From Gammaproteobacteria bacterium (lineage in GTDB: Bacteria; Pseudomonadota; Gammaproteobacteria; PS1; Pseudothioglobaceae), in assembly GCA_016845205.1 (NCBI GenBank), contig JAERTA010000068.1, positions 1 through 56,321 of the forward strand: a stretch of DNA of 56,321 nt, read 5' to 3'. This document shows positions 17,793-31,755 of the stretch, one piece after another. The notes under the pieces were generated by a model. The model was not told the DNA's origin, ran no database searches, and saw nothing but the letters and a program-made list of their open reading frames with translations. Each line of letters begins with the position of its first letter. Within the stretch, counting starts at the first letter, position 1. The position numbers were made by a program, and so were the translations under genes.

Positions 17793-19550
17793 TTACGATA
17801 TTAAGTGTTTTAACGGGCTTTTTGATGCAGCTTCTTCATCACCCAACTCTCTCCAGGCAAAGCGCAATGCGTTAGTACGACGATTATAAAAACGGTTGTC
17901 GCCAAATCTATCCATGAAACCCGCTCTTTTCAATACTTTCTCAATACCTTCAGTACGGGCAAACAAGATTTCCACACCATTAGAAGAACAACGATCCAAT
18001 AAACGAGTAAGCATGTCCTCCCCACTAGCGTCAATCCAGTTAATCCCTGCCATATCAACAATAATATACCTTAGACATTTGTGTTTTTCTGCAATTAGTT
18101 TAAGTATCTTGTCTTCAAAATAACCTGCATTAGCAAAATACAGCGACCCCGAATATTTAACAATAGACACCACCTCACATCGTTCTAACTTATTTTCTAA
18201 AGCGTCAACAAACATGGTAGATCCGTCATGCGCAGATAATTCGGTAAATCTAGGCTCCATCGTACGGTAAAGAAACAAACCTAACGATAAAATTATGCCG
18301 ATCATAATACCATTTTCTAAACTCGGAGCAAAAACTAGCGTCAAAGCAAATGTAATGACTGCTACAAACGCATCATGTTTTTCAACTTTCCAGGCTTGCT
18401 TAATAGGCTCAATTTTAATCAGATTAAGAACGGCTGTCATAATAACGGCCGCAAGCGCCGCTTGCGGAATATGATAAAGCAGATCTGTTAACCATAATAG
18501 CGTAAATCCAACCAGTATAGCTGTAACAACCGATGAAAATCCAGTCACTGCTCCAGCAGAAATATTAACCGCAGAACGGGAAAATGACCCTGATATTGGG
18601 TACCCTTGAAACACACCTGAAACAAAATTTGCCAAACCTTGGCCCATCAGCTCTTGATTAATATCAAGACGCTGCTTTGTTTTAGCCTGCATAACTTTGG
18701 CAATGGCAATCGCTTCCATAAAACCAATCAATGCAATCGTGATGGCAATCACTACCATTTCGTTCATTGCTGAAAAGTCAACGTCTGGCATTATAAAATC
18801 AGGCAGCCCTTCTGGAATTTCACCAACTATCGCACCACCAAGCCCGCCTTCTTCAATAGGTTTACCAAAATCAATCAACCATGAAACAAAAGTGGCAGAA
18901 GCTACAGCAATCAACACGCCTGGTAATTTTGGCTGGTACCTTCTAATACCAATAATAATAATCGAAGCAACAATTGCAAAAACAAGGGTTATAAAATGGG
19001 TATTAGTTGCTGCATTAATAACCGTACCCCAAACCTGTTCATAACTGTATTCACCAGGCCCTTTGGCAACACCAAAAATCTTATTTAATTGTGAAGCAGC
19101 AATAATAATTGCTGCCGCATTAGTAAAGCCAATAACCACAGGATGGGATAAAAAATTTATCACAAAGCCTAGTTTCAGCGCTCCCATGGCGAATCGAAAA
19201 AATCCCACCATAAGTGCAAGTAACGAAGCGTAAGCTGCGTAGGTCACCATATCTGCTCCTTCAGGAACAACCGATGGTATAGCTGCAGCAGTTAGAAGGG
19301 ATACAATGGCAACAGGGCCCGTGCCTAATTGACGAGAAGAGCCCATCAAGGCTGCTATCATTACAGGCAAAAATGACGCATATAAACCGTATTGTGGCGC
19401 TAGCCCTGCTAGTTGTGCGTATGCCATTGATTGTGGCACCAAAACCAATGCAACCGTTAAACCTGCAACAATATCAGCTCTTAGAACTTTCTGATCTTTT
19501 AACTCGTGTATCCAAGCCAAGAAAGGAAAAAACTTTGCAAATTTATTCAT
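17793..19550 (-). CDS. SulP-family anion (sulfate/bicarbonate) transporter with C-terminal STAS domain
   Basis: SulP N-terminal signature (ADIVAGLTVALVLVPQSMAYAQLAGL) and a STAS-like C-terminus. Start taken at the ATG at 19550; the track uses TTG at 19568. Confidence 0.85.
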   Translation of the reverse strand: MNKFAKFFPFLAWIHELKDQKVLRADIVAGLTVALVLVPQSMAYAQLAGLAPQYGLYASFLPVMIAALMGSSRQLGTGPVAIVSLLTAAAIPSVVPEGADMVTYAAYASLLALMVGFFRFAMGALKLGFVINFLSHPVVIGFTNAAAIIIAASQLNKIFGVAKGPGEYSYEQVWGTVINAATNTHFITLVFAIVASIIIIGIRRYQPKLPGVLIAVASATFVSWLIDFGKPIEEGGLGGAIVGEIPEGLPDFIMPDVDFSAMNEMVVIAITIALIGFMEAIAIAKVMQAKTKQRLDINQELMGQGLANFVSGVFQGYPISGSFSRSAVNISAGAVTGFSSVVTAILVGFTLLWLTDLLYHIPQAALAAVIMTAVLNLIKIEPIKQAWKVEKHDAFVAVITFALTLVFAPSLENGIMIGIILSLGLFLYRTMEPRFTELSAHDGSTMFVDALENKLERCEVVSIVKYSGSLYFANAGYFEDKILKLIAEKHKCLRYIIVDMAGINWIDASGEDMLTRLLDRCSSNGVEILFARTEGIEKVLKRAGFMDRFGDNRFYNRRTNALRFAWRELGDEEAASKSPLKHLIS

Positions 19551-19731
19551 GAAATTAGCTACTTTCAAATATTACAAGAATGACTCTGTTTCTTACTACA
19601 GAGTGTGTTTAGAGATTTTAACTTAGCGATTGTAAAAAATAAAATCGCTTGTGCTTTTATATATTAGATAATTATAACATACTTATAGGCTAACCCTTCT
19701 CAGGATTGGCCTACACTACACTATATCAAAA

Positions 19732-20535
19732 CTAAGCAAAGAATGTGCCGACAGCCGCACCAAGTGTATCTCGCATATCCACATCATCCGTTAACGGCTC
19801 AACAAGTGCCATGTGACAAGCGTCTTCCGGACTAATACCTTTAGCAATCAGTTGGCCTGCATATATTAACAAACGAGTTGACATGCCTTCATCTAAACCA
19901 TGGCCTTTTAAGTTACGCGAACGTTGTGCAACTTGAACTAGCTTTTCTGCTGTTTCTTTATCAATACCAGTCTCATGTGAAACAATTTCCACTTCCATCT
20001 CACTAGGCGGGTAATCAAACGACATACCACCAAAACGCTGCTTTGTTGATTGCTTCAAATCTTTCATCATAGACTGATAGCCTGGATTATATGAAATTAC
20101 AATTTGAAAATCAGGGTGTGCATCAACTTGTTCACCTTTTTTCTCAAGTGGCAATTGACGACGATGATCAGTTAGTGGGTGAATAACTACTGTCGTATCT
20201 TGGCGAGCCTCTACTATTTCATCAAGGTAACAGATAGCACCTATACGAGCCGCAGTGGTTAGTGGCCCATCTTGCCATTTTGTGCCATTTGCATCAAGCA
20301 AGAAACGACCAACCAAGTCTGATGCTGTCATATCCTCATTACAAGCAACACTAATTAGAGGCTTTTGCAGCTTCCACGCCATATATTCAACAAATCTTGA
20401 TTTTCCACAACCTGTAGGTCCTTTTAATAAGACTGGCATACGGGCAGAATATGCCGCTTCATAGCGCTCAACCTCTTGACCAACCTTATGATAGTAAGGC
20501 TCTTCAGTTATCATGTATTGACTTGTATCTATCAT
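19732..20535 (-). CDS. cbbQ: CbbQ, MoxR-type AAA+ Rubisco activase subunit
   Basis: 267 aa, Walker A GPTGCGKS, Walker B YLDEIVEA. CbbQ/NirQ/NorQ-like throughout and adjacent to cbbO. Confidence 0.9.
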   Translation of the reverse strand: MIDTSQYMITEEPYYHKVGQEVERYEAAYSARMPVLLKGPTGCGKSRFVEYMAWKLQKPLISVACNEDMTASDLVGRFLLDANGTKWQDGPLTTAARIGAICYLDEIVEARQDTTVVIHPLTDHRRQLPLEKKGEQVDAHPDFQIVISYNPGYQSMMKDLKQSTKQRFGGMSFDYPPSEMEVEIVSHETGIDKETAEKLVQVAQRSRNLKGHGLDEGMSTRLLIYAGQLIAKGISPEDACHMALVEPLTDDVDMRDTLGAAVGTFFA

Positions 20536-20589: not shown

Positions 20590-23004
20590 TTATTTTGTTA
20601 ACGATAAATACAGCTCTGGCAACTTCTCAGGCAATCGCTCAACATTGTCAAGCACCAAAAAGTTTTGAGCGCCAAAAATCCTTGAAACGTACTCATCTGC
20701 ATGTGGATCAAGTGTCAAGCAAAATGTATTAATACCTTCTCTAGCCAACTCTTCAACAGCACGTTTTGTATCAAAACGCAGATATTGAGGGTCATTCTCA
20801 TCATTATCTGCCGGCTCACCATCGGTCAATAAAAATAGAATTTTTTTACTACTACCTCGTTCATTTAGCAATGAGCCCGCATGACGAACTGCTGCACCCA
20901 TCCTGGTCGATAGTTGGCCAGTCATACCTGCTAAATGCGCTTTAGCTTCATCGCCATATTCTTCATCAAAATCTTTGAATCGATAATATTCTACATCATG
21001 TCGTCCATTAGAATCAAAACCATGAATTGCAAATGGGTCGCCAATTTTATCCATAGCATCTGCCATAAGAGCGGCTGCCTCACGTGACAAATCTAGAATG
21101 GTAGGTTGGTTGTTTTCTTCGGACTCATCGTCATTGTTTTTATTTGCATTTGCCACAAGGTCAGATTTAGAAGATGGAAGCGGGTCATTTGTCGACTCCG
21201 ACAAGTCAACCAACAATATAACCGACAGATCTCTAATCTGAAGGGTTGTTCGAATACCTATTCGAGGATCAGGCTGCACACCGCGACGAATATCAATCAT
21301 CGCATTAATTGCCTCATTCAAATCAATTTCATCTCCATCTTCAACTTTTCTTTGTCTGATTAATCCTTGTGGCTGCACGGCCTCAATAAGATGTTTCAAT
21401 CGTCTTACAAGTGGCTTATGACGTTCTAAAATATCTTCAATAATATCTGTATCGCCAGATTTTGGTCGCTTCTCTAACAAAGTTACCCAGCTTGGTCTCT
21501 CTAGTTGAGTTTGGTAGTCCCACTCATGATAATGGACTGGCGAAGAGATAGGCTCTTTGCCCTCCATTTCATTCCATGAAACACCCTCATCTTCATAAGG
21601 AAATAATTCTGTACCGAGAACCCAAATTTCTTGCGCATCATCGCCAGCATTTGGAACTTCGACTTCATTAATCATTTCCATTAAACTGACATATTTACGA
21701 ACTTGTTGTATTTCACCCGGCAATAGCTCATGTCCTTCTTCAACATGATCTGGTGATTGCCACAAACATCGATTGTCATCTCGATAAACATTGCTGTATT
21801 TATCATGGCTTGAATTTAAAACAAGATCCGACTCTAGAATTTTTTGTGCAATATCTAAGCCAATTTCACGAGAGATTTCTGATTCTGATATACGATCTTT
21901 GCAAGCCGTGAATTGTTGACGAGCATCTACAACCAATGGGTGATCGTCTTGATACTCTTCATCTATCAAGGCTCTAGCCATTCTATCTAAAATAGGCTGA
22001 AGTGTATTATCAGGGCTCTTGTCTACTGGAAGCAAATTGATCCATAATTGCTTCATTCCTGGAAATTTTTCAACGGCTAAAAACTCCACACGCGCATCTT
22101 CGATTACGCCAATAATTAATCGCTGTAAATTACTTAACTCTTCTAAAGCATTCTCATCATATGGAGAAAAAACAATATGTGCTGCCGCATGCGCAGAACT
22201 GGCGCGATAAACATCCATACCCAAAACGATTGAATCCTCATCAGCGTCTTCTGATGGTTTATAGTCATCAAAAGCATCTGGCAGATGAATAAAATAATGT
22301 TCAATATACGGACGATAACCTTCACGCGTTTCATAGTCGCCAGAAGTTGGGCGAATAAAAAAATCACGCCCCCATAACGATCTAAGGTACATATTTAGTC
22401 TTCGTTGAATATTAACGAAAAGCACACCACGTTGCTCTTGTTTTAAGATTGCTTTAGCTTGCTCACTTTTTAAACTGAAGTATTCAGCTTGTGCCTCAAA
22501 ATCATCACGGTAAGCAGAGATACCCCAGGCCGTCCAGCGTCTAAGCCCACCCAATGTAAGCTGACCAAGCAAAACGTCTAGACTCTCTAAAAAAGGCCTA
22601 ATTGCTCTTGGTGCTTTTGCAACCAAGTTGTTCAATAAACTCAAGTAAGCCTTGAATAAGTCTATTTCTCCAAGTCTATTTGCCGCAATTGGCGCTGTTG
22701 AAAAAACCAATGCAATAACTTCCGAACTTGTTCTGGAATACATTTTGATTGCGATAGAATGCAAATCAGGCACTGCCTGTTCACCAATCTCTTTTGCAAC
22801 GATAGGCGCACTTTCAATGAATGAAATAACTAATTCGACGCCACGTCCAATTGATTTTAAACCCAGTGCAGCCTCTAAATAAGATTGTAGCCCTCTAGGG
22901 CTAAAGACACGTGTTGCTTCATGCCAGTTTGCTTCTAGAACCTCGCCGGACTGATCGCCCAACTCTTCAAGAAGATCTTCATAATCTGATAACTGAACTG
23001 ACAT
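20590..23004 (-). CDS. cbbO: CbbO, von Willebrand factor A-domain adaptor of the CbbQO Rubisco activase
   Basis: 804 aa. C-terminal vWA domain with a MIDAS-like DLSES motif (LLVDLSESTN) and LFLLTDGEPAD. Paired with cbbQ. Confidence 0.85.
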   Translation of the reverse strand: MSVQLSDYEDLLEELGDQSGEVLEANWHEATRVFSPRGLQSYLEAALGLKSIGRGVELVISFIESAPIVAKEIGEQAVPDLHSIAIKMYSRTSSEVIALVFSTAPIAANRLGEIDLFKAYLSLLNNLVAKAPRAIRPFLESLDVLLGQLTLGGLRRWTAWGISAYRDDFEAQAEYFSLKSEQAKAILKQEQRGVLFVNIQRRLNMYLRSLWGRDFFIRPTSGDYETREGYRPYIEHYFIHLPDAFDDYKPSEDADEDSIVLGMDVYRASSAHAAAHIVFSPYDENALEELSNLQRLIIGVIEDARVEFLAVEKFPGMKQLWINLLPVDKSPDNTLQPILDRMARALIDEEYQDDHPLVVDARQQFTACKDRISESEISREIGLDIAQKILESDLVLNSSHDKYSNVYRDDNRCLWQSPDHVEEGHELLPGEIQQVRKYVSLMEMINEVEVPNAGDDAQEIWVLGTELFPYEDEGVSWNEMEGKEPISSPVHYHEWDYQTQLERPSWVTLLEKRPKSGDTDIIEDILERHKPLVRRLKHLIEAVQPQGLIRQRKVEDGDEIDLNEAINAMIDIRRGVQPDPRIGIRTTLQIRDLSVILLVDLSESTNDPLPSSKSDLVANANKNNDDESEENNQPTILDLSREAAALMADAMDKIGDPFAIHGFDSNGRHDVEYYRFKDFDEEYGDEAKAHLAGMTGQLSTRMGAAVRHAGSLLNERGSSKKILFLLTDGEPADNDENDPQYLRFDTKRAVEELAREGINTFCLTLDPHADEYVSRIFGAQNFLVLDNVERLPEKLPELYLSLTK

Positions 23005-23031
23005 AAAAAAGGATAATATTTAAAAGTTGTT

Positions 23032-23271
23032 TTAATCAGGCCAAATACGTTTTGGATGGCTGATAGAGTTTGTTGCTAACTTCTTGACGACAGGCTTCTT
23101 AGTAACAGTCTTTTTAGTTACTTTTTTCTTAGCTACTGGCTTCTTAGCAGCAACTTTTTTAGCAACTGGTTTTTTAGCTGGACTTTTCTTAGCTATTGGC
23201 TTTTTAACAACGGGCTTATCCTGCTCTGGCTTGTTAATACTCTCAACTAACTTATCTTCTAATTTACTCAT
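23032..23271 (-). CDS. mcdB: Lys-rich 79-aa pentapeptide-repeat protein, copy 1 (McdB-like candidate carboxysome adaptor)
   Basis: Own SD (AAGGAG) upstream of the ATG. Nine consecutive xxxKK pentads and a C-terminal ...HPKRIWPD with a single Trp. Lies downstream of the ParA-like gene within the carboxysome cluster. The function is inferred. Confidence 0.55.
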   Translation of the reverse strand: MSKLEDKLVESINKPEQDKPVVKKPIAKKSPAKKPVAKKVAAKKPVAKKKVTKKTVTKKPVVKKLATNSISHPKRIWPD

Positions 23272-23306
23272 GCGGCACTCCTTAGTTTAATACTTAACAA
23301 AAACAA

Positions 23307-23546
23307 TCAATCAGGCCAAATACGTTTTGGATGGCTGATAGAGTTTGTTGCTAACTTCTTGACGACAGGCTTCTTAGTAACAGTCTTTTTAGTTACTTTT
23401 TTCTTGGCTACTGGCTTCTTAGCAGCAACTTTTTTAGCAACTGGTTTTTTAGCTGGACTTTTCTTAGCTATTGGCTTTTTAACAACAGGCTTATCCTGCT
23501 CTGGCTTGTTAATACTCTCAACTAACTTATCTTCTAATTTACTCAT
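23307..23546 (-). CDS. mcdB: Lys-rich 79-aa pentapeptide-repeat protein, copy 2 (McdB-like), protein identical to copy 1
   Basis: SD-like AAGGGGAG upstream, 14 nt after the ParA-like stop codon. Translation is identical to copy 1. Confidence 0.55.
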   Translation of the reverse strand: MSKLEDKLVESINKPEQDKPVVKKPIAKKSPAKKPVAKKVAAKKPVAKKKVTKKTVTKKPVVKKLATNSISHPKRIWPD

Positions 23547-23560
23547 TTTTCTCCCCTTGT

Positions 23561-24190
23561 TTACTTTTTAAAAACTTCTTTAATTACAGACTCAATATCA
23601 TTAACTGCTGTATCACCCCGTTTTCCAAACTGATAAACACTAATTCCTTCCAGTGCTGCCCAACGATATGACGCACGCCTTCCCAGTGAGCTTTTTAGAG
23701 CCGGCAAGCCACAAAATTCTATGGCTTGTCGCATCGCCTTTGAAAGTGCACTTCTGCTTTCTACTTGATTACGAACAAGATAGGACTTTAGTTTTTTATT
23801 GGTTTTTTGCGCCTCTTTAACAGCATCTACCATATGCACACTACTCCACAAATCTGGCGGCGAAGGCAAAACTGGTATTAACAACAAATCCACTAGATCA
23901 AGCACTTGTTTTGTATGCCCACTTTCTAAACTTGGTGGACAGTCAATCACTATATAGTCAAAATCACTTTCTGCTGATTTAATGGATTTTTTTATGTCTT
24001 CAGAAGCATTCACCACACTTGGCATGCCTTCAACTGAAGCTTTTAACCAGTGCTCTAACGTGCCTTGTGGGTCTGCATCAAGTAACGCTGATTTTCCTCT
24101 GGACATTAACCCTGAAGCTAAATTTAAAGACAGTGTAGACTTACCACATCCTCCTTTAAGGTTAGCAACTGCAATTCTTAACTTAGCCAT
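23561..24190 (-). CDS. mcdA: ParA/MinD-family ATPase, McdA-like (maintenance of carboxysome distribution)
   Basis: 209 aa. Deviant Walker A NLKGGCGKST with the signature Lys, plus LDADPQG and IVIDCPP motifs. No HTH and no parB nearby. Embedded in the carboxysome operon, with an 8-nt overlap with the upstream gene. Confidence 0.75.
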   Translation of the reverse strand: MAKLRIAVANLKGGCGKSTLSLNLASGLMSRGKSALLDADPQGTLEHWLKASVEGMPSVVNASEDIKKSIKSAESDFDYIVIDCPPSLESGHTKQVLDLVDLLLIPVLPSPPDLWSSVHMVDAVKEAQKTNKKLKSYLVRNQVESRSALSKAMRQAIEFCGLPALKSSLGRRASYRWAALEGISVYQFGKRGDTAVNDIESVIKEVFKK

Positions 24191-24506
24191 TTTTCTCCCC
24201 CTCTACGACAGTTATTGAATCCTTACCTAAAGCATCAACTTGTGCTGCAAATGAAAAATCAACGTCAGTAAATTTTTCTTCATCTCTAGATTTAATAGAC
24301 ACGTTAACGTGCACGCGACTAAAAGTCAAATCTGGATAGTAGTCTTCTTTTTCAGACAAGTCTTGAAGCTCATCAAGAAAATCTCTCATGTCGTCATAGC
24401 TACTGTAATCATAACGCTTTGTCATTGTTAACGCACGTTTTTGTACCTTCCACCCAAGGCTGGTAACGTTTGCTATTCCTTTGTCTATTGAGTTGTTATT
24501 GCTCAT
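24183..24506 (-). CDS. Pterin-4a-carbinolamine-dehydratase-like protein (acRAF-type Rubisco assembly factor)
   Basis: 107 aa, PCD-fold-like. The catalytic HHP[DE] motif is replaced by YYPD (EKEDYYPDLTFSRVHVNVSI). This is the typical position in alpha-carboxysome loci. Confidence 0.7.
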   Translation of the reverse strand: MSNNNSIDKGIANVTSLGWKVQKRALTMTKRYDYSSYDDMRDFLDELQDLSEKEDYYPDLTFSRVHVNVSIKSRDEEKFTDVDFSFAAQVDALGKDSITVVEGEKNG

Positions 24507-24510
24507 TTTT

Positions 24511-24939
24511 TTAATTTAATTCAAGCATCCACTTTTCAATGGACTTTAGATGATGTTTCTCTTCTTCCAGTAGTGCGTTAAATAATTCATACCCATGAAT
24601 AAGGCCACTATTTAAACAATATTGGCTTGCGTCACTGTACAGTTCTACAACATCTTTTTCGAGTTGCCAATCTACAATCAATATCTCTTTCAATGTTCTT
24701 GTCTTTGGTATTGATTTTAATTGTGTAGTAGACGCTGTTAAACCCAACTTCAGCATGAAATTAATGAGTCTAGATGCATGGTCAAACTCTTCTTTTGCCT
24801 CTTCTTCAAACTTTGATGCTGCGGATTCTAAACCCCAAATTTTGCATAAATTAGATTGGGTCGTATAATACTGGATAGCTGACATTTCGTGCTCCAGCCC
24901 TCGCCTCAAATACCAACTAAGTTTTGAATTGGCCAACAT
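24511..24939 (-). CDS. Ferritin/bacterioferritin-like four-helix-bundle protein of the carboxysome operon
   Basis: Start moved to the ATG at 24939, 4 nt after the csoS4B stop; the track start would overlap csoS4B by 47 nt. Di-iron ligand pattern is E...ExxH twice (LEHE, EEFDH, LEKD, EEKHH). Confidence 0.7.
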   Translation of the reverse strand: MLANSKLSWYLRRGLEHEMSAIQYYTTQSNLCKIWGLESAASKFEEEAKEEFDHASRLINFMLKLGLTASTTQLKSIPKTRTLKEILIVDWQLEKDVVELYSDASQYCLNSGLIHGYELFNALLEEEKHHLKSIEKWMLELN

Positions 24940-24943
24940 AGAA

Positions 24944-25204
24944 TTATCTCTTTGGCTCTGGCCATTCCCATTGATCAATAATCCCAACAATTGTTAAATC
25001 AGTTGCTGAATCATAGCTTGGCATTGCCCATCTCGCAGCAGATCCACTTGCTGTTACAACCCATTTTCCAATGCCAACACCGACTGGGTCAGAAGCACAC
25101 CACACCTTCCCCTTTAGGTCTTTCATTACTCTTAACGAAATACCTTCTAATTGCTTAACAGACCGAGTGCAAACTAGATCTTCTTGGACTTGCATTATTT
25201 CCAT
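24944..25204 (-). CDS. csoS4B: Carboxysome pentameric vertex protein CsoS4B (EutN/CcmL family)
   Basis: 86 aa. MEIMQV...SAAR...DLTIVGIID pattern of EutN/CcmL. Second of two paralogs after csoSCA. Confidence 0.9.
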   Translation of the reverse strand: MEIMQVQEDLVCTRSVKQLEGISLRVMKDLKGKVWCASDPVGVGIGKWVVTASGSAARWAMPSYDSATDLTIVGIIDQWEWPEPKR

Positions 25205-25212
25205 GTAGACTT

Positions 25213-25473
25213 CTACCCTTTCTGATCTTTATCCCAATAATCGATAATACCGACTATTGTTAAATCACTTGGATAATCCTTGCTTCCGGCAGACTCTCGT
25301 GCTGCCGAACTTCCTACACAAATTACCCAATCACCTGGAATGCAGCCAACAGCATCAACTGCTACTAATGGCGTGCCGTTAGGCTTATCTCGTACAACAA
25401 GCAAAGGTCTTAAACCTAAATTTTTAATACGATTGGTTGAGACAAGAGTCTTTTCTACTTGCATTATTCTCAT
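25213..25473 (-). CDS. csoS4A: Carboxysome pentameric vertex protein CsoS4A (EutN/CcmL family)
   Basis: 86 aa (MRIMQVEKTLVSTNRI...SSAARES...DLTIVGIIDYW). The start overlaps the csoSCA stop (TAATG). Confidence 0.9.
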   Translation of the reverse strand: MRIMQVEKTLVSTNRIKNLGLRPLLVVRDKPNGTPLVAVDAVGCIPGDWVICVGSSAARESAGSKDYPSDLTIVGIIDYWDKDQKG

Positions 25474-27059
25474 TATGCTTCCTCACTTATAATTTCAAGA
25501 CTGCTGCCTAATGGTAGATCTTGAATGCTAATTTGAAAAAATAAATTATTATTTTCACCTAATGTTTTGTATCTATTTAATATCGCATTTTTAACACGAT
25601 AACATTTTTCTATCAACCTTTTCCTTGATCCAGGCACTTTAGAATCATAACGATAATGAATAGCAATAGGTGCTGGCAATCCTTTATTTAGATTTAATCC
25701 TGTAAAAATTTTAATACCAATATCTAAATCTGCCGAACCCTCTTCAACAGTATCTAAATGCGCAAAGTAGGCAATATTTCGCAATTGGATCTCTTGAAAA
25801 CCGTCGCCTACGCTAATATAACGTTCAGCGTGACCAATATCTGGATAGATACCACCGTATAAATCGGCAACATACTCAATCTGAGATAAATTATATTCAA
25901 GCAAGTTGGCAACAACTTTTCTCATGCCTTCATGAGGCCTTCCATCGCCTTGTGCCCAGCCAGATGAATCACTACAAATATCAATAGCGTTATATAATTT
26001 AACTCTTGCCTGATCAATGCTCATTGACAATGTTTCGTTATATAATTGAGATGTATCGACATATCGATGCACACTTATATTGCCAGCTGAATCAGGCACA
26101 TGTACACGAATAGAATCATTATCAGTATCAACACCAATCAATAAAATATCAATTGCAGATCCACAACAATAGGTATTTTCGATTGCTTCACGAAACTCTG
26201 TTAACTTCTCTAAGCCGGCTTCAGCAGATACTTTATCATTACTGCCATGAGCAGCACATCCTTGATGCGAAGGGTCAGAACCACTTCTATGATAGACAAC
26301 AATCTTTAAATAACTATTTCCATCGTCAAGAACTTTACCATTTCTTAACCTGTCTAGCTCAATTTTCTCCCAATCGCGCACATTGGACTCAACATTAAAT
26401 AATGCCCCAGCATAAGAATTACGAACAGTAATTGCCGATAAAGGTAAACGTAAAATATACTTAGCAAGCCCTTTCAAACGACCATCAGAGCAAGGTGTAA
26501 TATCAACACTGTGATAGCCACAGTCCAAAAAGAAACTGCCAGCGTCTACTCTTAAATCTTCATTTCTCCCTAAATCATCTGAGAACTGAGCGACCGAACT
26601 ATTTAACGCATTAAAAACAGCTTTAGCATATAAAGCTTTCATGTCTAAACCATCAACCCAGGCAGTTTCTAACAATTCAGTTGGAAAGTTAAAACCAAGC
26701 TCTTTTGAGGTGATAGAATTTGCCTTAGAAACAAAATCATTCTCATGTTGTAAATTTGCAAGTTTTTTTAAAGTTGGTGTAATCGAATCAAAGCGAACTT
26801 TAATGGATTCCTCACACCTGGCTAAATGAGCATTCTGCCTCATATTTGTCAAAGGATGTCTACACGAGCGTTCTGGCATAGTGTCACACACCGTATTTAA
26901 ATCCATTGGAGTTTTAGCACCAATATCGTAATCTTGTTTAGAGGAATAAGAACTTTTGGCTTGTGGGAGTGCACTTGATTGTGCCATCCCAACTGGTGCT
27001 TTGTTTAAAGGACTAGAAACACGAGAGGCTCTAATCTTGTAAGCATTCCTGGTATTCAT
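25473..27059 (-). CDS. csoSCA: Carboxysome shell carbonic anhydrase CsoSCA (CsoS3)
   Basis: 528 aa. Beta-CA-like zinc/catalytic motifs CSDGR (DITPCSDGRLKG) and HQGC (SHQGCAAHGS). Canonical position after csoS2. Confidence 0.9.
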   Translation of the reverse strand: MNTRNAYKIRASRVSSPLNKAPVGMAQSSALPQAKSSYSSKQDYDIGAKTPMDLNTVCDTMPERSCRHPLTNMRQNAHLARCEESIKVRFDSITPTLKKLANLQHENDFVSKANSITSKELGFNFPTELLETAWVDGLDMKALYAKAVFNALNSSVAQFSDDLGRNEDLRVDAGSFFLDCGYHSVDITPCSDGRLKGLAKYILRLPLSAITVRNSYAGALFNVESNVRDWEKIELDRLRNGKVLDDGNSYLKIVVYHRSGSDPSHQGCAAHGSNDKVSAEAGLEKLTEFREAIENTYCCGSAIDILLIGVDTDNDSIRVHVPDSAGNISVHRYVDTSQLYNETLSMSIDQARVKLYNAIDICSDSSGWAQGDGRPHEGMRKVVANLLEYNLSQIEYVADLYGGIYPDIGHAERYISVGDGFQEIQLRNIAYFAHLDTVEEGSADLDIGIKIFTGLNLNKGLPAPIAIHYRYDSKVPGSRKRLIEKCYRVKNAILNRYKTLGENNNLFFQISIQDLPLGSSLEIISEEA

Positions 27060-27068
27060 GATGCGAAA

Positions 27069-29528
27069 TTAACCGCGTGCGCCGCCAGATAAAGTTACTC
27101 TTGAAGAGCCACCATCTGTACCATTTCCACCACCGCTACCATTAGTAATCTTAGGGCCTTCAACAATAGTCACTTCTCGATCCTTAAGTGCATGAGCACC
27201 AACTTTATGATCGTGATTTGGATTGCCTTTTTGCGTATCATTTCGATTAGAAGAGAACATACCTTCAGTGCCAGTAATTTGTCCACCACGGGACCAATTA
27301 TCACCTGTGACATCTGAACCGATTTCGTTGCCTTCGCCAGTCACAACTTTTGTCGGCTCTGAAGAAATAGCAACCTCCTGTTGAGATGCTTCATACGGAT
27401 GTCTAAATTCTGGTGTGCCTGTCATTACACCTTGCGCTTTAGCAACTGGGCCGGTAATTCTTGCATTGGTTCCAAAAACACTGTCATGGACTCTTTCAGA
27501 TCTACTCTGAAATGCCACACGAGCAGGCGACTGAACCGAAAAGTTTGCGTCATATTGCTCAGCTTGGCCTTCATTCTTGAGATAAGGTGTGCCACTAATT
27601 GACTGATCAAAACCCTTATTAAAATTACCAGAGAAACGTTGATCTTCTGTTGGTACCGTGCCACTTACCTCTTGCATTGTATGTGTTTTTCTCATTCTTT
27701 GCTCACTTTCAGCTACTGCTGACGTATCACAAAACTGACTCATCTCATCTCTAGATCTATAGCTGCTTCCAGAAATAGGACTACAACCACCAACTTCGTC
27801 ACCAGTCACTATCTCAGATTGACTAACTTGCGACCCAGAAACTTGTTGATCGTTCCATGTGTGACTTACTGTGTCTTTAAACTGTGCTGCCATCGGTACA
27901 AAAGAACATCTTTGCTCAAAACTTTCCTTACTAACATATTCGTTTCCGGTGACACCCAGGCACATGCCATAGTTGTCACCCGTTAGCTTTGGGGAGCCAT
28001 TAACCTCACTACCAGAAACACGATTACCAGTAATAGTATGTGTTTGATTTACTTTATCCGAACGCTGGTCGCACAAGCCTTTATTCGCAGAACTGTCATA
28101 TTGACTCCCAGTTAAACGCTGGCATGTTCCAGGCTCATTGCCAGTTACTTTCTCATCTCTATCCATCATGTTACCTGTAACACCCATACCCTTACGAGTG
28201 CTATCAACAGAAACCTTATTTGGTGTCAATGGGGCTTGAGTTCCACAATTAGCAATATATCTTTCATTAGAGACATATTCGGTGCCAGTCACTCTTTCAC
28301 ATGAGTCTTGAGCATCGCCTGTAACGGCTAGTGGTGATGATAATTCGCCACCTGATATTACAGAGCCATTATTTGTATGATTCACATCAACCTTAGTCGC
28401 ACCAACATTTGAACGACTAAAAGGGGCAGTTGAATAGTCAGAACCAGTAATTGCATGGCCGGCACCTGACTCAGAACCGGTTGTTGCATTTGCTCTAGCC
28501 TCATCTGCTCCAGTTATTGCTAAATTTTTTTTTGACGGTGTTGACATTACCTTGTGATGCGATGAAACAGCATCTGTATTAGAACATGCATTTGAATAAT
28601 GATCATAGCCCAAGTATTCATTACCTGTAATTACATTGCATGAACCAGGTTCGGTGCCAGTAATTTTAGAAGTAGACTCGACCAAAGTACCCGTCATTGT
28701 CTGACCTTTAGTTGTTTGAGTTTCACCAACCTTGGGTTCGTTTGCCTGAGGTGTTGTTGAGCATAATTGTGAAAATTGCTCAGCGCCTAAATACTCAGTG
28801 CCTGTAATTCCCTTACAACCGCCGGCTTCACTACCTGTAATCTTTTGTGTTTGTTCAACTTGAGTTCCACTAACTGTTTGACCTGCTAGTGTAGTACCTA
28901 GTTCAACTTTAGATGGAGCAGAACCTGGTCTAACTCTACCGCTTGGACGACAAGCTTCTTTATTGCCACGGCCAACTGTGCATCTTTCTTCACGCTTAAT
29001 TTTGGCTAGATCACGACCCGACATAGAGTTTTTATTATTATTAACTCTAGATCTTCTTGCTTCTCTACCAACTTTGCCTGGTAATGCTTGTTTGCCAGTT
29101 TTTGACATTTGTCTGCGTCTATCTCTACAGAAAGCTCTAACAGATGAACTAGCATTTGATTGACCAGCATCAACTAGCTCACAAATTGCATCTATTTTTA
29201 CATCGCCTTCTTGCGTAGATTGTTTATCATTGCAAGGAGAGCATGTTTCTTTCAAACCCTTTTCCTTGCAATCATCACAACAATACTCAAAGTTATCGTT
29301 TTCTACTGCTTGAGTATTGTTGTTTAATTCGTTATCTGTAGTGTTGTCTACAGTAGTATTTGACTGAACTTCTTGACCAATATTTGGGTTTGCTACTACA
29401 GCTGATTGTCTTCCTCTAGGGTTTACTCGACCAGTTTTTTTCATACCGGCAGAACCTGTTTTAGACATTTGCTGACGTCTGAGCATTGACCTCTCGCGTC
29501 CAGAAAGTTTTTCTGTTGAATTTGTCAT
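27069..29528 (-). CDS. csoS2: CsoS2 carboxysome scaffold protein
   Basis: 819 aa of low complexity. Three basic N-terminal motifs (RRQQMSKTG, RDRRRQMSKTGK, AKIKREERCTVGRG), seven middle repeats carrying [VI][TS]G triplets and paired Cys, and a C-terminal region with VTG/ITG motifs and a Gly-rich tail. Confidence 0.9.
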   Translation of the reverse strand: MTNSTEKLSGRERSMLRRQQMSKTGSAGMKKTGRVNPRGRQSAVVANPNIGQEVQSNTTVDNTTDNELNNNTQAVENDNFEYCCDDCKEKGLKETCSPCNDKQSTQEGDVKIDAICELVDAGQSNASSSVRAFCRDRRRQMSKTGKQALPGKVGREARRSRVNNNKNSMSGRDLAKIKREERCTVGRGNKEACRPSGRVRPGSAPSKVELGTTLAGQTVSGTQVEQTQKITGSEAGGCKGITGTEYLGAEQFSQLCSTTPQANEPKVGETQTTKGQTMTGTLVESTSKITGTEPGSCNVITGNEYLGYDHYSNACSNTDAVSSHHKVMSTPSKKNLAITGADEARANATTGSESGAGHAITGSDYSTAPFSRSNVGATKVDVNHTNNGSVISGGELSSPLAVTGDAQDSCERVTGTEYVSNERYIANCGTQAPLTPNKVSVDSTRKGMGVTGNMMDRDEKVTGNEPGTCQRLTGSQYDSSANKGLCDQRSDKVNQTHTITGNRVSGSEVNGSPKLTGDNYGMCLGVTGNEYVSKESFEQRCSFVPMAAQFKDTVSHTWNDQQVSGSQVSQSEIVTGDEVGGCSPISGSSYRSRDEMSQFCDTSAVAESEQRMRKTHTMQEVSGTVPTEDQRFSGNFNKGFDQSISGTPYLKNEGQAEQYDANFSVQSPARVAFQSRSERVHDSVFGTNARITGPVAKAQGVMTGTPEFRHPYEASQQEVAISSEPTKVVTGEGNEIGSDVTGDNWSRGGQITGTEGMFSSNRNDTQKGNPNHDHKVGAHALKDREVTIVEGPKITNGSGGGNGTDGGSSRVTLSGGARG

Positions 29529-29617
29529 ATTAAATTCCGTTTATAAGTACTTAAATATTTTTGCTAATGTTTATTAATAAACCATTAACAAATTTAAGTT
29601 TTATATAATCATTTCTA

Positions 29618-29643
29618 GGCGAATAACACAAAAGTTATTCACC
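29618..29643 (-). other. Stem-loop in the 129-nt csoS1-csoS2 spacer
   Basis: Minus-strand RNA GGUGAAUAAC-UUUUGU-GUUAUUCGCC forms a 10-bp stem with one G-U, starting 14 nt after the csoS1 stop. No adjacent U-tract, so it is not a canonical terminator. Confidence 0.4.
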
Positions 29644-29657
29644 TAAAAAATGACTGA

Positions 29658-29954
29658 TTAAACTTCAGCCGCTGAAGGCAGAATGTTTTCAACTTCGCCG
29701 TGAACACGCGCAATAATGTGGGCTGCTACCAGACCATCACCTACACGCTCACATGCGTCAGCGCCAGCACGTACTGCTGCGTTTACCGCACCAGTTTCAC
29801 CACGTACTAATACTGTTACATAACCGCCACCAACGAACTGACGACCAACTAAACGAACTTCTGCCGCTTTGGTCATAGCATCGGCCGCTTCAATAGCAGG
29901 AACAAGACCTCTAGTCTCGATCATGCCCAATGCGATTCCTGTTACATCACTCAT
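29658..29954 (-). CDS. csoS1: Carboxysome major shell protein CsoS1 (BMC-H hexamer)
   Basis: 98 aa. [32 protein letters not shown]...[23 protein letters not shown] is the canonical BMC-domain sequence. Confidence 0.95.
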
Positions 29955-29977
29955 AGTATTTCTCCTATATTTTTATA

Positions 29978-30307
29978 TTAGCCGCGATAAACAACGAAGT
30001 TCATACCTTGACTTTGTGAATAATTATCATAACCAAGCAAACGAACGTGGTGGTTAGGATACTCTCTATGACAAGCTTCTAGCTCTGCTAGAACTACATC
30101 AACTGATTGCTCACCAAACATTGGCAATTTCCACATGTACCAGTAATAAGTCATAGAACGCGCTGGCTCTACATGCTCAATTGCTGGATTCCATCCATTG
30201 TTAATGATGAACTGAATGTGTTGTCTTGTTTGATCAGGTGTCATCTGTGGTAAGTATGAAAAAGTTTCAAACTTAGGTCCAGATTTATAATCTTGCATTT
30301 CACTCAT
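29978..30307 (-). CDS. cbbS: RuBisCO small subunit (form IA)
   Basis: 109 aa (ETFSYLP...WNPAIEH...[11 protein letters not shown]). Lies immediately downstream of cbbL. Confidence 0.95.
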
Positions 30308-30336
30308 AATAATTCCTCTTCTTTAAATTAAACCAA

Positions 30337-31755
30337 TTAACGGTTTTGACCGTCTAGTTTATCAACTGTGTCAAACTCAAACTTAATTTCTTTCCATGTT
30401 TCCATAGCAATCTTAAGTTCTGGACTATGTGCAGCAGCACTCTCCATTACAGCTTTACCTTCACGCTCTACATCAATACCGCGGTTACGCGCATCAACAC
30501 AAGCTTCAAGTGCAACACGGTTTGCAGCAGCACCTGCGGCATTACCCCATGGGTGACCTAACGTACCACCACCAAACTGTAGTACAGAATCGTCACCAAA
30601 GATTGCAACTAGTGCAGGCATATGCCATACATGAATACCACCCGATGCAACAGGCATTGTGCCTGGCATTGAACCGAAATCTTGGTCAAAGAAAATACCA
30701 CGACTACGATCTTCAGGAACAAATGATTCACGCATTAAGTCAATCCAACCTAATGTTGCTTCACGATCACCTTCTAGCTTACCTACAACAGTACCAGAGT
30801 GCATATGATCACCACCAGATAAACGTAAAGTTTTCGCTAATACTCTGAAGTGAATACCATGATGTGGGTTACGATCAACTACAGCGTGCATTGCACGGTG
30901 AATGTGTAACAATACACCGTTCTTAGCACACCAGCGCGCTAAACCTGTGTTTGCACAAAAACCACCAGTAAAGAAGTCATGCATAATAATTGGTGACTTA
31001 ATTTCTTTTGCAAATTCTGCACGTTCATACATTTCTTCCGGAGAAGCTGCTGTTACGTTTAAGTAGTGACCCTTACGCTCACCTGTTTCTTGTTCTGCAG
31101 TTTCAATTGCATCCTGACAGAATAAGAAACGATCACGCCAGCGCATAAACGGTTGAGAGTTTACGTTCTCATCATCCTTTGTAAAGTCTAAACCACCACG
31201 CAAACATTCGTATACCGCACGACCATAGTTCTTAGCTGATAAACCAAGTTTTGGCTTAATTGTACAACCTAACATTGGGCGACCGTATTTATTCATCTTG
31301 TCACGCTCTACTTGGATACCATGCGGAGGACCATTACAAGTCTTAACATATGCAAGAGAGAATCTAATGTCTTCTAAACGAAGGGCTCGTACTGCCTTAA
31401 ATCCAAATACGTTACCAACTAGTGAAGTTAGTACGTTTACAATTGATCCTTCTTCAAATAAGTCAATTGGGTAAGCAATAAATGCATAGTAACAACTATC
31501 ATCACCTGGTACATCTTCAATACGGTAACAACGGCCACGGTAGTAATCCATGTCTGTTAGTAAGTCTGTCCATACTGTAGTCCAAGTACCTGTTGAAGAT
31601 TCAGCAGCAACCGCAGCAGCAGCTTCTTCACGATCAATACCTGGTTGTGGTGTGATCTTAAAACAAGCCAATAAGTCCGAATCTAACGGAACATAATCAG
31701 GTTGCCAGTAAGTTTCGCGGTAATCCTTTACACCCGCTTCGTATTTTTTGGCCAT
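30337..31755 (-). CDS. cbbL: RuBisCO large subunit (form I, green-type IA)
   Basis: 472 aa. [10 protein letters not shown] (carbamylated-Lys motif), [11 protein letters not shown] and [13 protein letters not shown] strong SD (AAGGAGG) lies 5 nt upstream. Confidence 0.97.

Follow-up and report, generated by a model that had tools for sequence, protein, structure and literature searches.

The interval 23032-24190 on the minus strand of the analyzed DNA (56,321 nucleotides from a gammaproteobacterium of the Pseudothioglobaceae; hereafter the window) carries mcdA and two tandem mcdB genes inside an alpha-carboxysome (cso) cluster, as judged from ORFs and Pfam matches. With a probability of roughly 0.9, we regard these genes as a carboxysome-distribution system of the alpha-McdAB type in which the adaptor gene is duplicated. 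An McdA/McdB-like positioning module had been proposed in an initial annotation of this DNA, and the proposal was borne out by the alpha-McdB features of the small protein, by cso-specific residues of McdA (19 of 19) and by a conserved gene order. The function would be that of the Halothiobacillus neapolitanus proteins, from which it is transferred by homology. Neither a genome scan nor a protein search starting from the McdA of Halothiobacillus sp. DCM-1 returned a match named H. neapolitanus; a Halothiobacillus sp. congener (L015) served as its stand-in, and residue numbers were taken from the papers.

The mcdA gene and its surroundings

The mcdA gene (23561..24190, minus strand; ORF, Pfam and NCBIfam) encodes a 209-aa alpha-McdA, a small ParF-like ATPase of the ParA/MinD type. 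All ATPase motifs reported initially are present, namely the deviant Walker A motif KGGCGKST at residues 12-19 with the signature lysine K12, DADPQG at residues 38-43 and the Walker B motif IVIDCPP at residues 80-86. The protein displays the motifs published for alpha-McdAs (PMC8359340). It matched AAA_31/CbiA in Pfam, its best NCBIfam model was ParA_partition ('ParA family partition ATPase'; 179.9 bits at a cut-off of 180) and the closest solved structure was ParF (4dzz, E 1.7e-22). Identity to the McdAs of 29 cso-linked loci ranged from 42 to 92% and was 43% for the Halothiobacillus congener. All loci with an McdA at least 42% identical to window McdA were cso-linked (29/29). We derived a set of 19 cso-specific residues, near-invariant in 25 cso-linked McdAs and found in at most 25% of 16 other ParAs, which includes H47, C84, Q142, E144, R171, R176, Y186-Q187 and R191. 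Window McdA contains all 19 and, in addition, W48; a central Trp is among the published conserved regions that set cso-linked McdAs apart from classical ParAs. ParA relatives outside cso clusters were at most 40% identical and lacked these residues.

The initial placement inside a carboxysome cluster was confirmed by Pfam on both sides of the interval. Upstream lie cbbL, cbbS, csoS1, csoS2, csoSCA, csoS4A, csoS4B and a ferritin-like gene (24511..31755, minus strand; Pfam and ORFs), which encode the cargo organelle. They are followed by a Pterin_4a/acRAF-like gene (24183..24506, minus strand; PF01329 and synteny), the 3′ end of which overlaps the start of mcdA by 8 nt, as had been noted. This gene is the first of an acRAF-mcdA-mcdB unit that occurs likewise in H. 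neapolitanus as Hn0913-0912-0911 (PMC8359340). Directly 3′ of the second mcdB copy we found cbbO (20590-23004, minus strand) and then cbbQ (19732-20535, minus strand), with matches to VWA, CbbQ_C and AAA_5 in the pair; both are Rubisco activase genes, and their position is kept in related loci. The order csoS1/bfr - acRAF - mcdA - mcdB - cbbO was observed in most of the 29 cso-linked loci with long enough contigs, and a pair of mcdA and a small ORF was found at this place in 26 cso clusters of Gamma- and Betaproteobacteria.

The ATPase had also been described as lacking ParB and a plasmid context, which agrees with our results. By Pfam, no ParB/ParG-like partner gene follows mcdA, the next genes being the two mcdB copies and then cbbO; no second Walker-A ParA is present in the window. 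Centromere-like repeats were absent as well: the region 22800-24400 contains no inverted repeats and, apart from the mcdB duplication and a 22-nt match covering the ribosome binding site and start, no direct repeats either. A DNA partition system of the ParABS or ParFG type was rejected on the missing ParB/ParG neighbor and the missing inverted repeats. A promoter and terminator scan around the genes gave no signal above shuffled expectation, and the terminator scan revealed no terminator-like site between mcdA and cbbO. Two ORFs on the plus strand (23084-23290 and 23359-23571) are rich in Phe and Leu and represent antisense shadows of the Lys codons.

McdB: conserved ends and a lysine-rich linker

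The first mcdB copy (23307..23546, minus strand, stop codon TGA) starts 14 nt past the mcdA stop codon. Its 79-aa product consists of MSKLEDKLVESINKPEQDK, nine consecutive xxxKK pentads (residues 20-64) and LATNSISHPKRIWPD, and it contains one Trp. The pentads and the single near-terminal Trp are as initially annotated. Codons 1-18 (MSKLEDKLVESINKPEQD; 23493..23546, minus strand) correspond to the putative McdA-interaction region with a predicted helix at residues 3-12 and the residues L4, K7, L8 and I12. The pentads (codons 20-64; 23355..23489, minus strand) form a polycationic linker predicted to be disordered, and codons 65-79 (23310..23354, minus strand) carry the C-terminal motif ...SHPKRIWPD, which includes the invariant Trp77 and by homology would bind the carboxysome. 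In H. neapolitanus McdB, the first 20 residues are both required and sufficient for McdA binding, K7 is critical and importance is predicted for L4, L8 and I12 (PMC12139897), while W94 is required for carboxysome association (PMC11321042).

Hallmarks of alpha-McdBs are a charged N-terminus, a V(I)WPD end, low hydrophobicity, a bias towards A/P/K/S/T, repeats and disorder (PMC8359340). Judged from its sequence, the small protein possesses every one of the published features. The N-terminus MSKLEDKLVESI (MSKLEDKL..SI) is charged, the GRAVY value is -0.87, and K (30.4%), P (11.4%), A (8.9%) and S+T (11.4%) account for 62% of the residues. The length of 79 aa lies inside the published range of 51-169. 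The initial annotation had suggested a disorder prediction; AlphaFold2, run with a 9-sequence alignment, predicted one short N-terminal helix (residues 3-12, pLDDT ~80) and coil elsewhere, with pLDDT values of 52-64 in the middle and a pTM of 0.19.

Both ends of the protein are conserved among homologues. A small ORF lies directly 3′ of mcdA in 26 related cso-linked loci, and most of these ORFs start with M[ST]KLEDKL, the N-terminal motif recurring throughout with occasional substitutions. In alignment A1, residues M1-L8, S11, I12, K14 and P15 are invariant. The C-terminal motif HP.R[VI]WPD was present in most of the 26 homologues and its core [VI]WPD in all of them. Nine metagenomic homologues, eight of them complete, kept both ends and varied in the middle; P0001-P0008 carry the N- and C-terminal motifs. 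Within the window, the two mcdB copies are the only ORFs ending in WPD, and the exact McdB sequence had no record in public assemblies.

A linker segment of 45 residues (residues 19-63) has a net charge of +19, and the lysine content of the whole protein is the highest of 27 alpha-McdBs compared. McdB of the Halothiobacillus congener has a net charge of +3, 9% Lys and an Ala/Pro-rich linker. At the DNA level, Tandem Repeats Finder detected the pentads as periods of 15, 30 and 45 nt with 69-79% match. Close relatives carry between about 2 and 12 pentads, a homologue of 57 aa contains only two KK pairs, and across homologues the net charge per residue lies between 0.04 and 0.33. The Lys fraction of the linker correlated strongly and inversely with the GC content of the locus (Spearman rho -0.85, p 3e-7, n=23), the low-GC loci belonging mostly to one clade and the correlation being computed over the loci as they stand, irrespective of kinship. 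Since net charge per residue of the linker also falls with GC content (rho -0.78), drift in composition is not the whole explanation. The Lys-rich repeat had been put forward as a new element. This claim did not hold, because A/P/K/S/T bias and repeats are published traits of alpha-McdBs and linker lysine follows GC content; the repeat lies at the far end of a trend in composition that is known and depends on GC content. The linker uses the Lys (AAR) codons favored by a genome of 39-40% GC and was probably lengthened by slippage of the 15-nt repeat.

The likeness to tails of histone H1, AlgP and PhaF, which had been pointed out as well, stands as a resemblance in composition and fails as homology. 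Scores for histone H1-like and Hc2 models remained below the cut-offs (PF07382, 39.6 versus 40; NF038052, 31.8 versus 135; NF038053, 27.2 versus 80), and the matches were confined to the low-complexity Lys-rich stretch. A histone H1/Hc2 identity of the small protein was rejected on these grounds. The nine-pentad middle is most readily interpreted as the linker that all alpha-McdBs possess, which is variable, disordered and positively charged, and not as a histone-derived domain. In one homologue (L005), McdB contains an inserted module with weak HhH-like similarity, which matched just two PDB chains of unclear function and gave no Pfam match even at E <=10.

Tandem duplication of mcdB

The initial annotation described one 79-aa protein downstream of the ATPase. 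The protein is as described, but the interval holds two tandem copies of its gene. The second copy (23032..23271, minus strand, stop codon TAA) encodes the identical 79-aa product and is separated from the first by a 35-nt spacer (23272..23306, minus strand). The copies, 275 nt apart from start to start, differ at 3 of 240 nucleotides, which amount to two synonymous changes and the stop codon. Identity between them extends exactly from the ATG to the stop codon, the flanks being unrelated on both sides. Both copies are preceded by a Shine-Dalgarno sequence of their own, GGGGAG located 4 nt 5′ of the ATG in copy 1 and AAGGAG, within the spacer, in copy 2.

The same two-copy layout was found in the related genome L001, where the spacer is orthologous and identical at 34 of 35 nt. 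Eleven substitutions that separate the window from L001 occur in both copies of each genome. At least two mcdB copies are present in L003. L086 and L087 carry tandem diverged paralogues of 57 aa and 79 aa, both with the N-terminal and WPD motifs; in L086, the difference between the paralogues is confined to the linker. All these loci, including the window, group within a single clade in the McdA tree. Both L001 and L003 are MAGs assembled from short reads, where an assembly consensus can produce identical repeats.

The sequence pattern shows a duplication under concerted evolution. It predates the split from the nearest relative, and gene conversion, limited to the coding sequence, keeps the copies near-identical in the window and L001. 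The ends of window mcdB resemble those of the short paralogue of L086 and its middle that of the long one, which is a suggestive but weak hint at a mosaic origin. Second alpha-McdB paralogues, termed 'special orphan', have been described in 12% of genomes (PMC8359340); a search for ORFs ending in WPD revealed none elsewhere in the window. Tandem or duplicated mcdB genes were found neither in the text of PMC8359340 nor in a wider literature search, a weak negative covering that article's text and the literature searched. A tandem full-length mcdB across one low-GC clade looks previously unreported.

Proposed function, alternative readings and known systems

By analogy with H. neapolitanus, where McdA shows ATP-dependent, non-specific DNA binding and is needed for carboxysome spacing (PMC13001409), ATP-bound McdA dimers would bind the nucleoid non-specifically, while the C-terminal ...RIWPD would anchor McdB on the carboxysome shell. 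The N-terminal helix of McdB (L4, K7, L8, I12) would contact the McdA dimer and favor its release from DNA. Local zones of McdA depletion would arise, and carboxysomes would climb the remaining McdA gradient in the manner of a Brownian ratchet. As an outcome, carboxysomes would be spaced evenly over the nucleoid and inherited by both daughter cells. The most likely effect of the duplicated mcdB would be a raised McdB:McdA dose.

Databases name homologues of the ATPase 'chromosome partitioning protein', and this, like ParF (a plasmid protein) as the nearest solved structure and the ParA_partition score just short of its cut-off, would suit a generic ParF-type partition ATPase beside an unrelated small basic nucleoid-associated protein (Hc2/H1-like), the two having come to lie among the cso genes by chance or being left from a mobile element. 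Such a coincidence is extremely improbable given the recurrence of the gene pair at the same spot in 26 cso clusters from two proteobacterial classes and the presence of the McdB-specific ends, which histone-like proteins lack. The low identity of non-cso ParA relatives, devoid of the 19 cso-specific residues, and the absence of both another Walker-A ParA in the window and a ParB/ParG-like gene after mcdA argue in the same direction. A true mcdB copy number of one, with the second copy being a collapsed or wrongly expanded repeat, is very improbable too. Runs of N coincide with the Lys-rich mcdB in L003, L085 and L088 and indicate that the region is hard to assemble. However, the two synonymous sites and the stop codon that differ, the unrelated flanks and the separate ribosome-binding sites speak for two genuine genes, as does the two-copy layout in the independent assemblies L001, L086 and L087 with an orthologous spacer.

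The linker invites a weightier objection. The pentad array could be a functional DNA-binding tail of the histone H1/AlgP/PhaF kind, by which McdB tethers carboxysomes to the nucleoid directly, besides McdA or partly in its place; the system would then be a hybrid of ParA-driven positioning and direct tethering. We consider this reading, which extends the direct DNA binding suggested in the initial annotation, unlikely. PhaM, PhaF and AlgP place PHB or polyP granules through non-specific DNA-binding, histone-like tails (PMC13052382, PMC9239181), and a charge of +19 over 45 residues is as dense as in true DNA-binding tails. The HC2 score of 39.6 bits at a cut-off of 40 and the HhH-like insert gained by the L005 homologue point the same way. 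H. neapolitanus McdB without McdA does not bind DNA (PMC12139897 Fig S3B; PMC13001409); with a lysine content at the top of 27 proteins here and a net charge of only +3 in the congener, that negative EMSA may not transfer. On the other hand, the H1-like matches are of low complexity and below every curated cut-off, pentad number and charge density vary even among close relatives, and GC content largely predicts lysine content. With the McdA-binding N-terminus intact and a full McdA kept, the ParA route is evidently operating, and a static DNA anchor would presumably oppose the mobility needed by a Brownian ratchet. It is quite unlikely that in the low-GC clade the linker is a genuine polycationic tail binding DNA or other polyanions, its dose doubled by the conversion-homogenized duplication, such that a ParA ratchet and a direct electrostatic tether comparable to PhaF and AlgP together hold carboxysomes on the nucleoid. 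If this were true, the short- and long-linker paralogues of the L086 lineage would represent a tuning of the balance between ratchet and tether.

As an McdAB system, the locus adds little to what is known: it is an ordinary copy, and the duplicated mcdB is its one unusual point. Alpha-McdAB was reported earlier in about 91% (McdA) and 100% (McdB) of 250 alpha-carboxysome proteobacteria. Public annotation of these genes still reads 'ParA family partition ATPase' and 'hypothetical protein', and re-annotation is possible by the signatures MSKLEDKL at the N-terminus and [VI]WPD at the C-terminus. The clade with tandem full-length mcdB amounts to a natural experiment in which a ParA ratchet varies in adaptor dosage and in linker length, with conversion-identical copies in some genomes and short- and long-linker forms in another lineage. 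The published second McdBs, which lack the N-terminus, do not address these two variables. The strong GC dependence of the linker also calls for caution in assigning function to 'histone-like' Lys-rich stretches in AT-rich genomes.

The closest known counterpart is the alpha-McdAB system found in H. neapolitanus (Hn0912/Hn0911; MacCready et al. 2021, PMC8359340). It shares the operon position (acRAF-mcdA-mcdB next to cbbO/cbbQ), a small ParA with the signature lysine and an McdB with an N-terminal helix (L4, K7, L8, I12), a disordered A/P/K/S/T middle and a C-terminal WPD, and its mechanism is presumed to be identical. The tandem full-length mcdB pair is a feature of the window, and the Halothiobacillus congener, with an McdA ~43% identical, has an Ala/Pro-rich linker (9% K, +3) in place of the Lys pentads (30% K, +19). 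'Special orphan' McdBs (PMC8359340) likewise represent a second mcdB per genome with disorder and a V(I)WPD end. In these, the charged N-terminus is missing and one member of the pair resides at a distant locus, whereas the window copies are adjacent, full-length and equipped with the McdA-binding N-terminus. PhaF, PhaM and AlgP (PMC13052382, PMC9239181) also contain a Lys/Ala/Pro-rich basic repeat in a protein linking an inclusion to nucleoid-based spacing. They bind DNA themselves and have no ParA ATPase; the window has a dedicated ParA and a basic segment located between two McdB-specific motifs, the likeness being compositional and not homologous. In the type Ib ParF/ParG system (TP228; PDB 4dzz), as in the window, a small ParA of ~206-209 aa without an N-terminal HTH is accompanied by a small partner whose flexible N-terminal region acts on the ATPase. 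The window partner, however, is no ribbon-helix-helix centromere binder, a centromere or plasmid context is missing and a protein organelle serves as cargo. Beta-McdAB (S. elongatus; Cyanothece McdA 6noo/6nop) follows the same logic of a nucleoid-bound ParA and an adaptor that is bound to the shell and carries an invariant C-terminal Trp. Similarity of beta-McdA to window McdA is weak (E about 1e-7) and restricted to the N-terminal region, and beta-McdBs form a coiled coil and oligomerize, unlike alpha-McdB, which is a monomer with about 95% disorder (PMC8359340).

An alpha-McdAB locus within the carboxysome cluster

The ParA-type ATPase McdA (209 aa) is encoded on the minus strand at 23561-24190. 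Inspection of the sequence located the motifs KGGCGKST, DADPQG and IVIDCPP in its product, and a scan of the ORFs in the window revealed no other deviant Walker A protein. The mcdA ORF overlaps the upstream 107-aa ORF (24183-24506, minus strand), assigned by Pfam to Pterin_4a (acRAF-like), by 8 nt. According to Pfam, the neighbours are, in order, CbbL, CbbS, CsoS1, CsoS2, CsoSCA, CsoS4A, CsoS4B, a ferritin-like protein, Pterin_4a, ParA, two small ORFs, CbbO (VWA domain) and CbbQ.

To compare related loci, one genome per species was scanned with the window ParA, which yielded 80 loci. All 29 loci with at least 42% McdA identity were linked to the alpha-carboxysome (cso) genes, and the order csoS1/bfr, acRAF, mcdA, small ORF, cbbO(-cbbQ) recurred wherever the contig extends that far. 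ParA matches at 40% identity or less had no cso genes in the 6 kb fetched per side. Three of the latter, from Tepidiphilus, Thiobacillus and Burkholderiales MAGs (L029, L030 and L031), are McdA-like (38-40% identity) and lack cso genes within 6 kb as well as any downstream ORF with a WPD end; these ATPases may act on another cargo or belong to a distant locus. A small ORF directly follows the ParA gene in 26 cso-linked loci. Most of its products start with M[ST]KLEDKL..S[IV] and most end with HP.R[VI]WPD, all of them with [VI]WPD, while the middle part varies greatly and the whole protein measures 54 to 208 aa. The same conserved ends and variable middle are seen in nine metagenomic homologues of the 79-aa protein (8 complete); where public sources name these, the label is 'hypothetical protein'.

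In H. neapolitanus, the ParA protein McdA (Hn0912) and the adjacent small protein McdB (Hn0911) distribute alpha-carboxysomes (MacCready et al. 2021, PMC8359340). Alpha-McdB proteins, found in 250 of 250 alpha-carboxysome proteobacterial genomes examined, combine a conserved charged N-terminus with an invariant C-terminal Trp, all ending in V(I)WPD, low hydrophobicity, an A/P/K/S/T-biased composition and intrinsic disorder (PMC8359340). In the H. neapolitanus protein, McdA binding requires the N-terminal 20 residues, which also suffice for it, with K7 critical and L4, L8 and I12 as predicted contacts (PMC12139897). Carboxysome association of this McdB depends on its C-terminal Trp (W94; PMC11321042). 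The window McdB contains L4, K7, L8, I12 and the terminal RIWPD, has a GRAVY of -0.87 and consists to 62% of K, A, P, S and T. Its disorder, which the initial annotation had proposed to examine, is supported by an AlphaFold2 prediction from a nine-sequence alignment, in which residues 3-12 form a helix and the remainder is coil. The window McdA, whose closest solved relative is ParF, carries all 19 residues that 25 cso-linked McdAs share almost without exception and that 16 other ParAs seldom have. Since these McdB residues, the composition, the predicted disorder and the McdA residues all fit, the locus is, judged from sequence, an ordinary and well-conserved alpha-McdAB; the McdA/McdB-like module initially proposed was correctly recognized, as every published sequence character was found.

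Several features of the surrounding cluster were recorded. The sole csoS1 (BMC-H) of the window lies between cbbS and csoS2 (29658-29954), and none is present between csoS4B and the ferritin-like gene (24944-24990), a position with one to four copies in the majority of relatives. The nearest relative (L001) shares this layout, and the related locus L003 has one csoS1 at each position. The mechanical 159-aa ferritin-like ORF (24511-24990) begins at a TTG within csoS4B. Since relatives measure 141-143 aa, translation probably begins instead at the ATG in position 24939, which gives 142 aa. Two transporter genes lie downstream of cbbQ in the same orientation, one of the SulP/STAS type (17793-19568) and one of the CitMHS/TrkA_C type (15794-17737); both are candidates for inorganic-carbon uptake appended to the cso cluster.

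The lysine-rich linker

Translation confirmed the nine xxxKK pentads described for the 79-aa protein, which reads MSKLEDKLVESINKPEQDK, pentads, LATNSISHPKRIWPD; the array is also periodic in the DNA at 15, 30 and 45 nt. Its presentation as a new element was overstated, as biased, repetitive A/P/K/S/T sequence is already published for alpha-McdB. Among the alpha-McdBs compared, KK pairs range from 0 to 12 (2 to 12 inside the clade of the window) and linker net charge per residue from 0.04 to 0.33; a closely related 57-aa McdB keeps both ends with only two KK pairs. The Lys fraction of the linker drops sharply as locus GC increases (Spearman rho -0.85, p 3e-7, n=23, without phylogenetic correction), and Arg and Ala+Pro+Gly rise, as expected for a hydrophilic linker that is under little constraint and exposed to mutational bias. 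Net charge declines with GC too, however, so compositional drift is not the full account. The window has a GC content of 39.8%. Matches to Hc2/H1-like models were limited to the low-complexity stretch and stayed under curated cut-offs. Together with the variable KK count and charge and the GC trend, this argues against a distinct histone-derived DNA-binding domain.

McdB of the model system frees McdA from DNA without binding DNA itself (PMC13001409, PMC12139897). This negative EMSA does not decide for the window McdB, because the latter has the highest Lys content among the 27 proteins compared (30.4% K, net +19), against a net charge of +3 in the protein of a Halothiobacillus congener, our stand-in for H. 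neapolitanus. Physiologically relevant, direct DNA binding by the window McdB seems rather unlikely.

A 208-aa McdB homologue from a Cocleimonas MAG (L005:2275-2901), with an MTKLEDKL N-terminus and an RVWPD C-terminus, carries an insertion of ~65 aa that looks like a folded module. Two PDB chains match this insertion: the C-terminal part of 'NADH:ubiquinone oxidoreductase 41 kD subunit' (9wqv_a, E 1e-14) and 'reaction center protein O' (8yy9_O, E 2.5e-13). It also bears a weak similarity of the HhH type to Dbh/Pol IV, and a Pfam search gave no match. By analogy, it may parallel the HhH domain of Caulobacter PhaH, which tethers PHB granules to DNA (PMC13052382).

Tandem mcdB copies

The ORF list confirmed the 79-aa product but not its single copy: two tandem minus-strand mcdB ORFs follow mcdA, a duplication that the initial annotation left out. 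Copy 1 (23307-23546) is preceded by the Shine-Dalgarno sequence GGGGAG and ends with TGA; copy 2 (23032-23271) has AAGGAG and TAA. A repeat finder detected a 238-nt direct repeat in this region with 99% identity and 275-nt spacing. Base-by-base comparison revealed 3 differences in 240 nt, two synonymous and one in the stop codon, and identity runs exactly from ATG to stop. As the copies differ at synonymous sites, stop codons and flanks, an assembly artefact is unlikely. Beyond these two copies no ORF of the window ends in WPD. The plus-strand ORFs 23084-23290 (68 aa) and 23359-23571 (70 aa) are Phe/Leu/Thr-rich antisense images of the Lys codons and were rejected as genes. The ribosome binding site and first codons of mcdA (24179-24200) match those of copy 1 (23535-23556) at 19 of 22 nt, with GGGGAGAAAAATG.. 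and M-A/S-K-L in common, which may equalise translation initiation.

The same two-copy layout exists in the nearest relative (L001, McdA 92% identical), and the 35-nt inter-copy spacer is orthologous, with identity at 34/35 nt; the duplication is therefore older than the divergence of the two genomes. Eleven substitutions distinguish window and relative, each common to both copies of each genome, but the two copies of one genome are no more than 2-3 sites apart. This substitution pattern is the hallmark of copies that evolve in concert through gene conversion, and it is confined to the mcdB coding sequence. Between 23032-23546 and L001:6645-7159, mcdB DNA is 95% identical (91% at third codon positions), and the adjoining mcdA is less conserved (86% and 68%). 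This is surprising, since otherwise no part of the locus varies as much as the McdB linker.

In an McdA neighbour-joining tree, single- and multi-copy loci (L001-L003, L081-L088 and the window) all fall into one clade. L002 and L081-L084 have one copy each. In L003, a complete copy is followed by a 25-nt spacer containing AGGAG and the beginning of a further copy; beyond an N gap lies one more complete copy. The tandem genes of L085-L088, a lineage with 90% McdA identity, have diverged into a 57-aa short-linker and a 79-aa Lys-rich long-linker form (L086:1593-2037, seen also in L087, L085 and L088), and both paralogues keep the McdA-binding N-terminal motif and RIWPD. N runs lie in or beside Lys-rich copies in three metagenome assemblies (L003:6820-6973, L085:~2740-2850, L088:~1770-1880), indicating a region hard to assemble from short reads, so that copy number is probably under-called in short-read MAGs.

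The likeliest consequence of the duplication would be a higher dose of the adaptor, with linkers that occasionally diverge in length. We found no description of a tandem full-length mcdB duplication in the literature. Second McdBs have been published for 12% of genomes; the N-terminus is missing from them, and one member of each pair is encoded at a distant locus (PMC8359340). In contrast, the copies of the window clade are arranged in tandem and keep the N-terminal motif.
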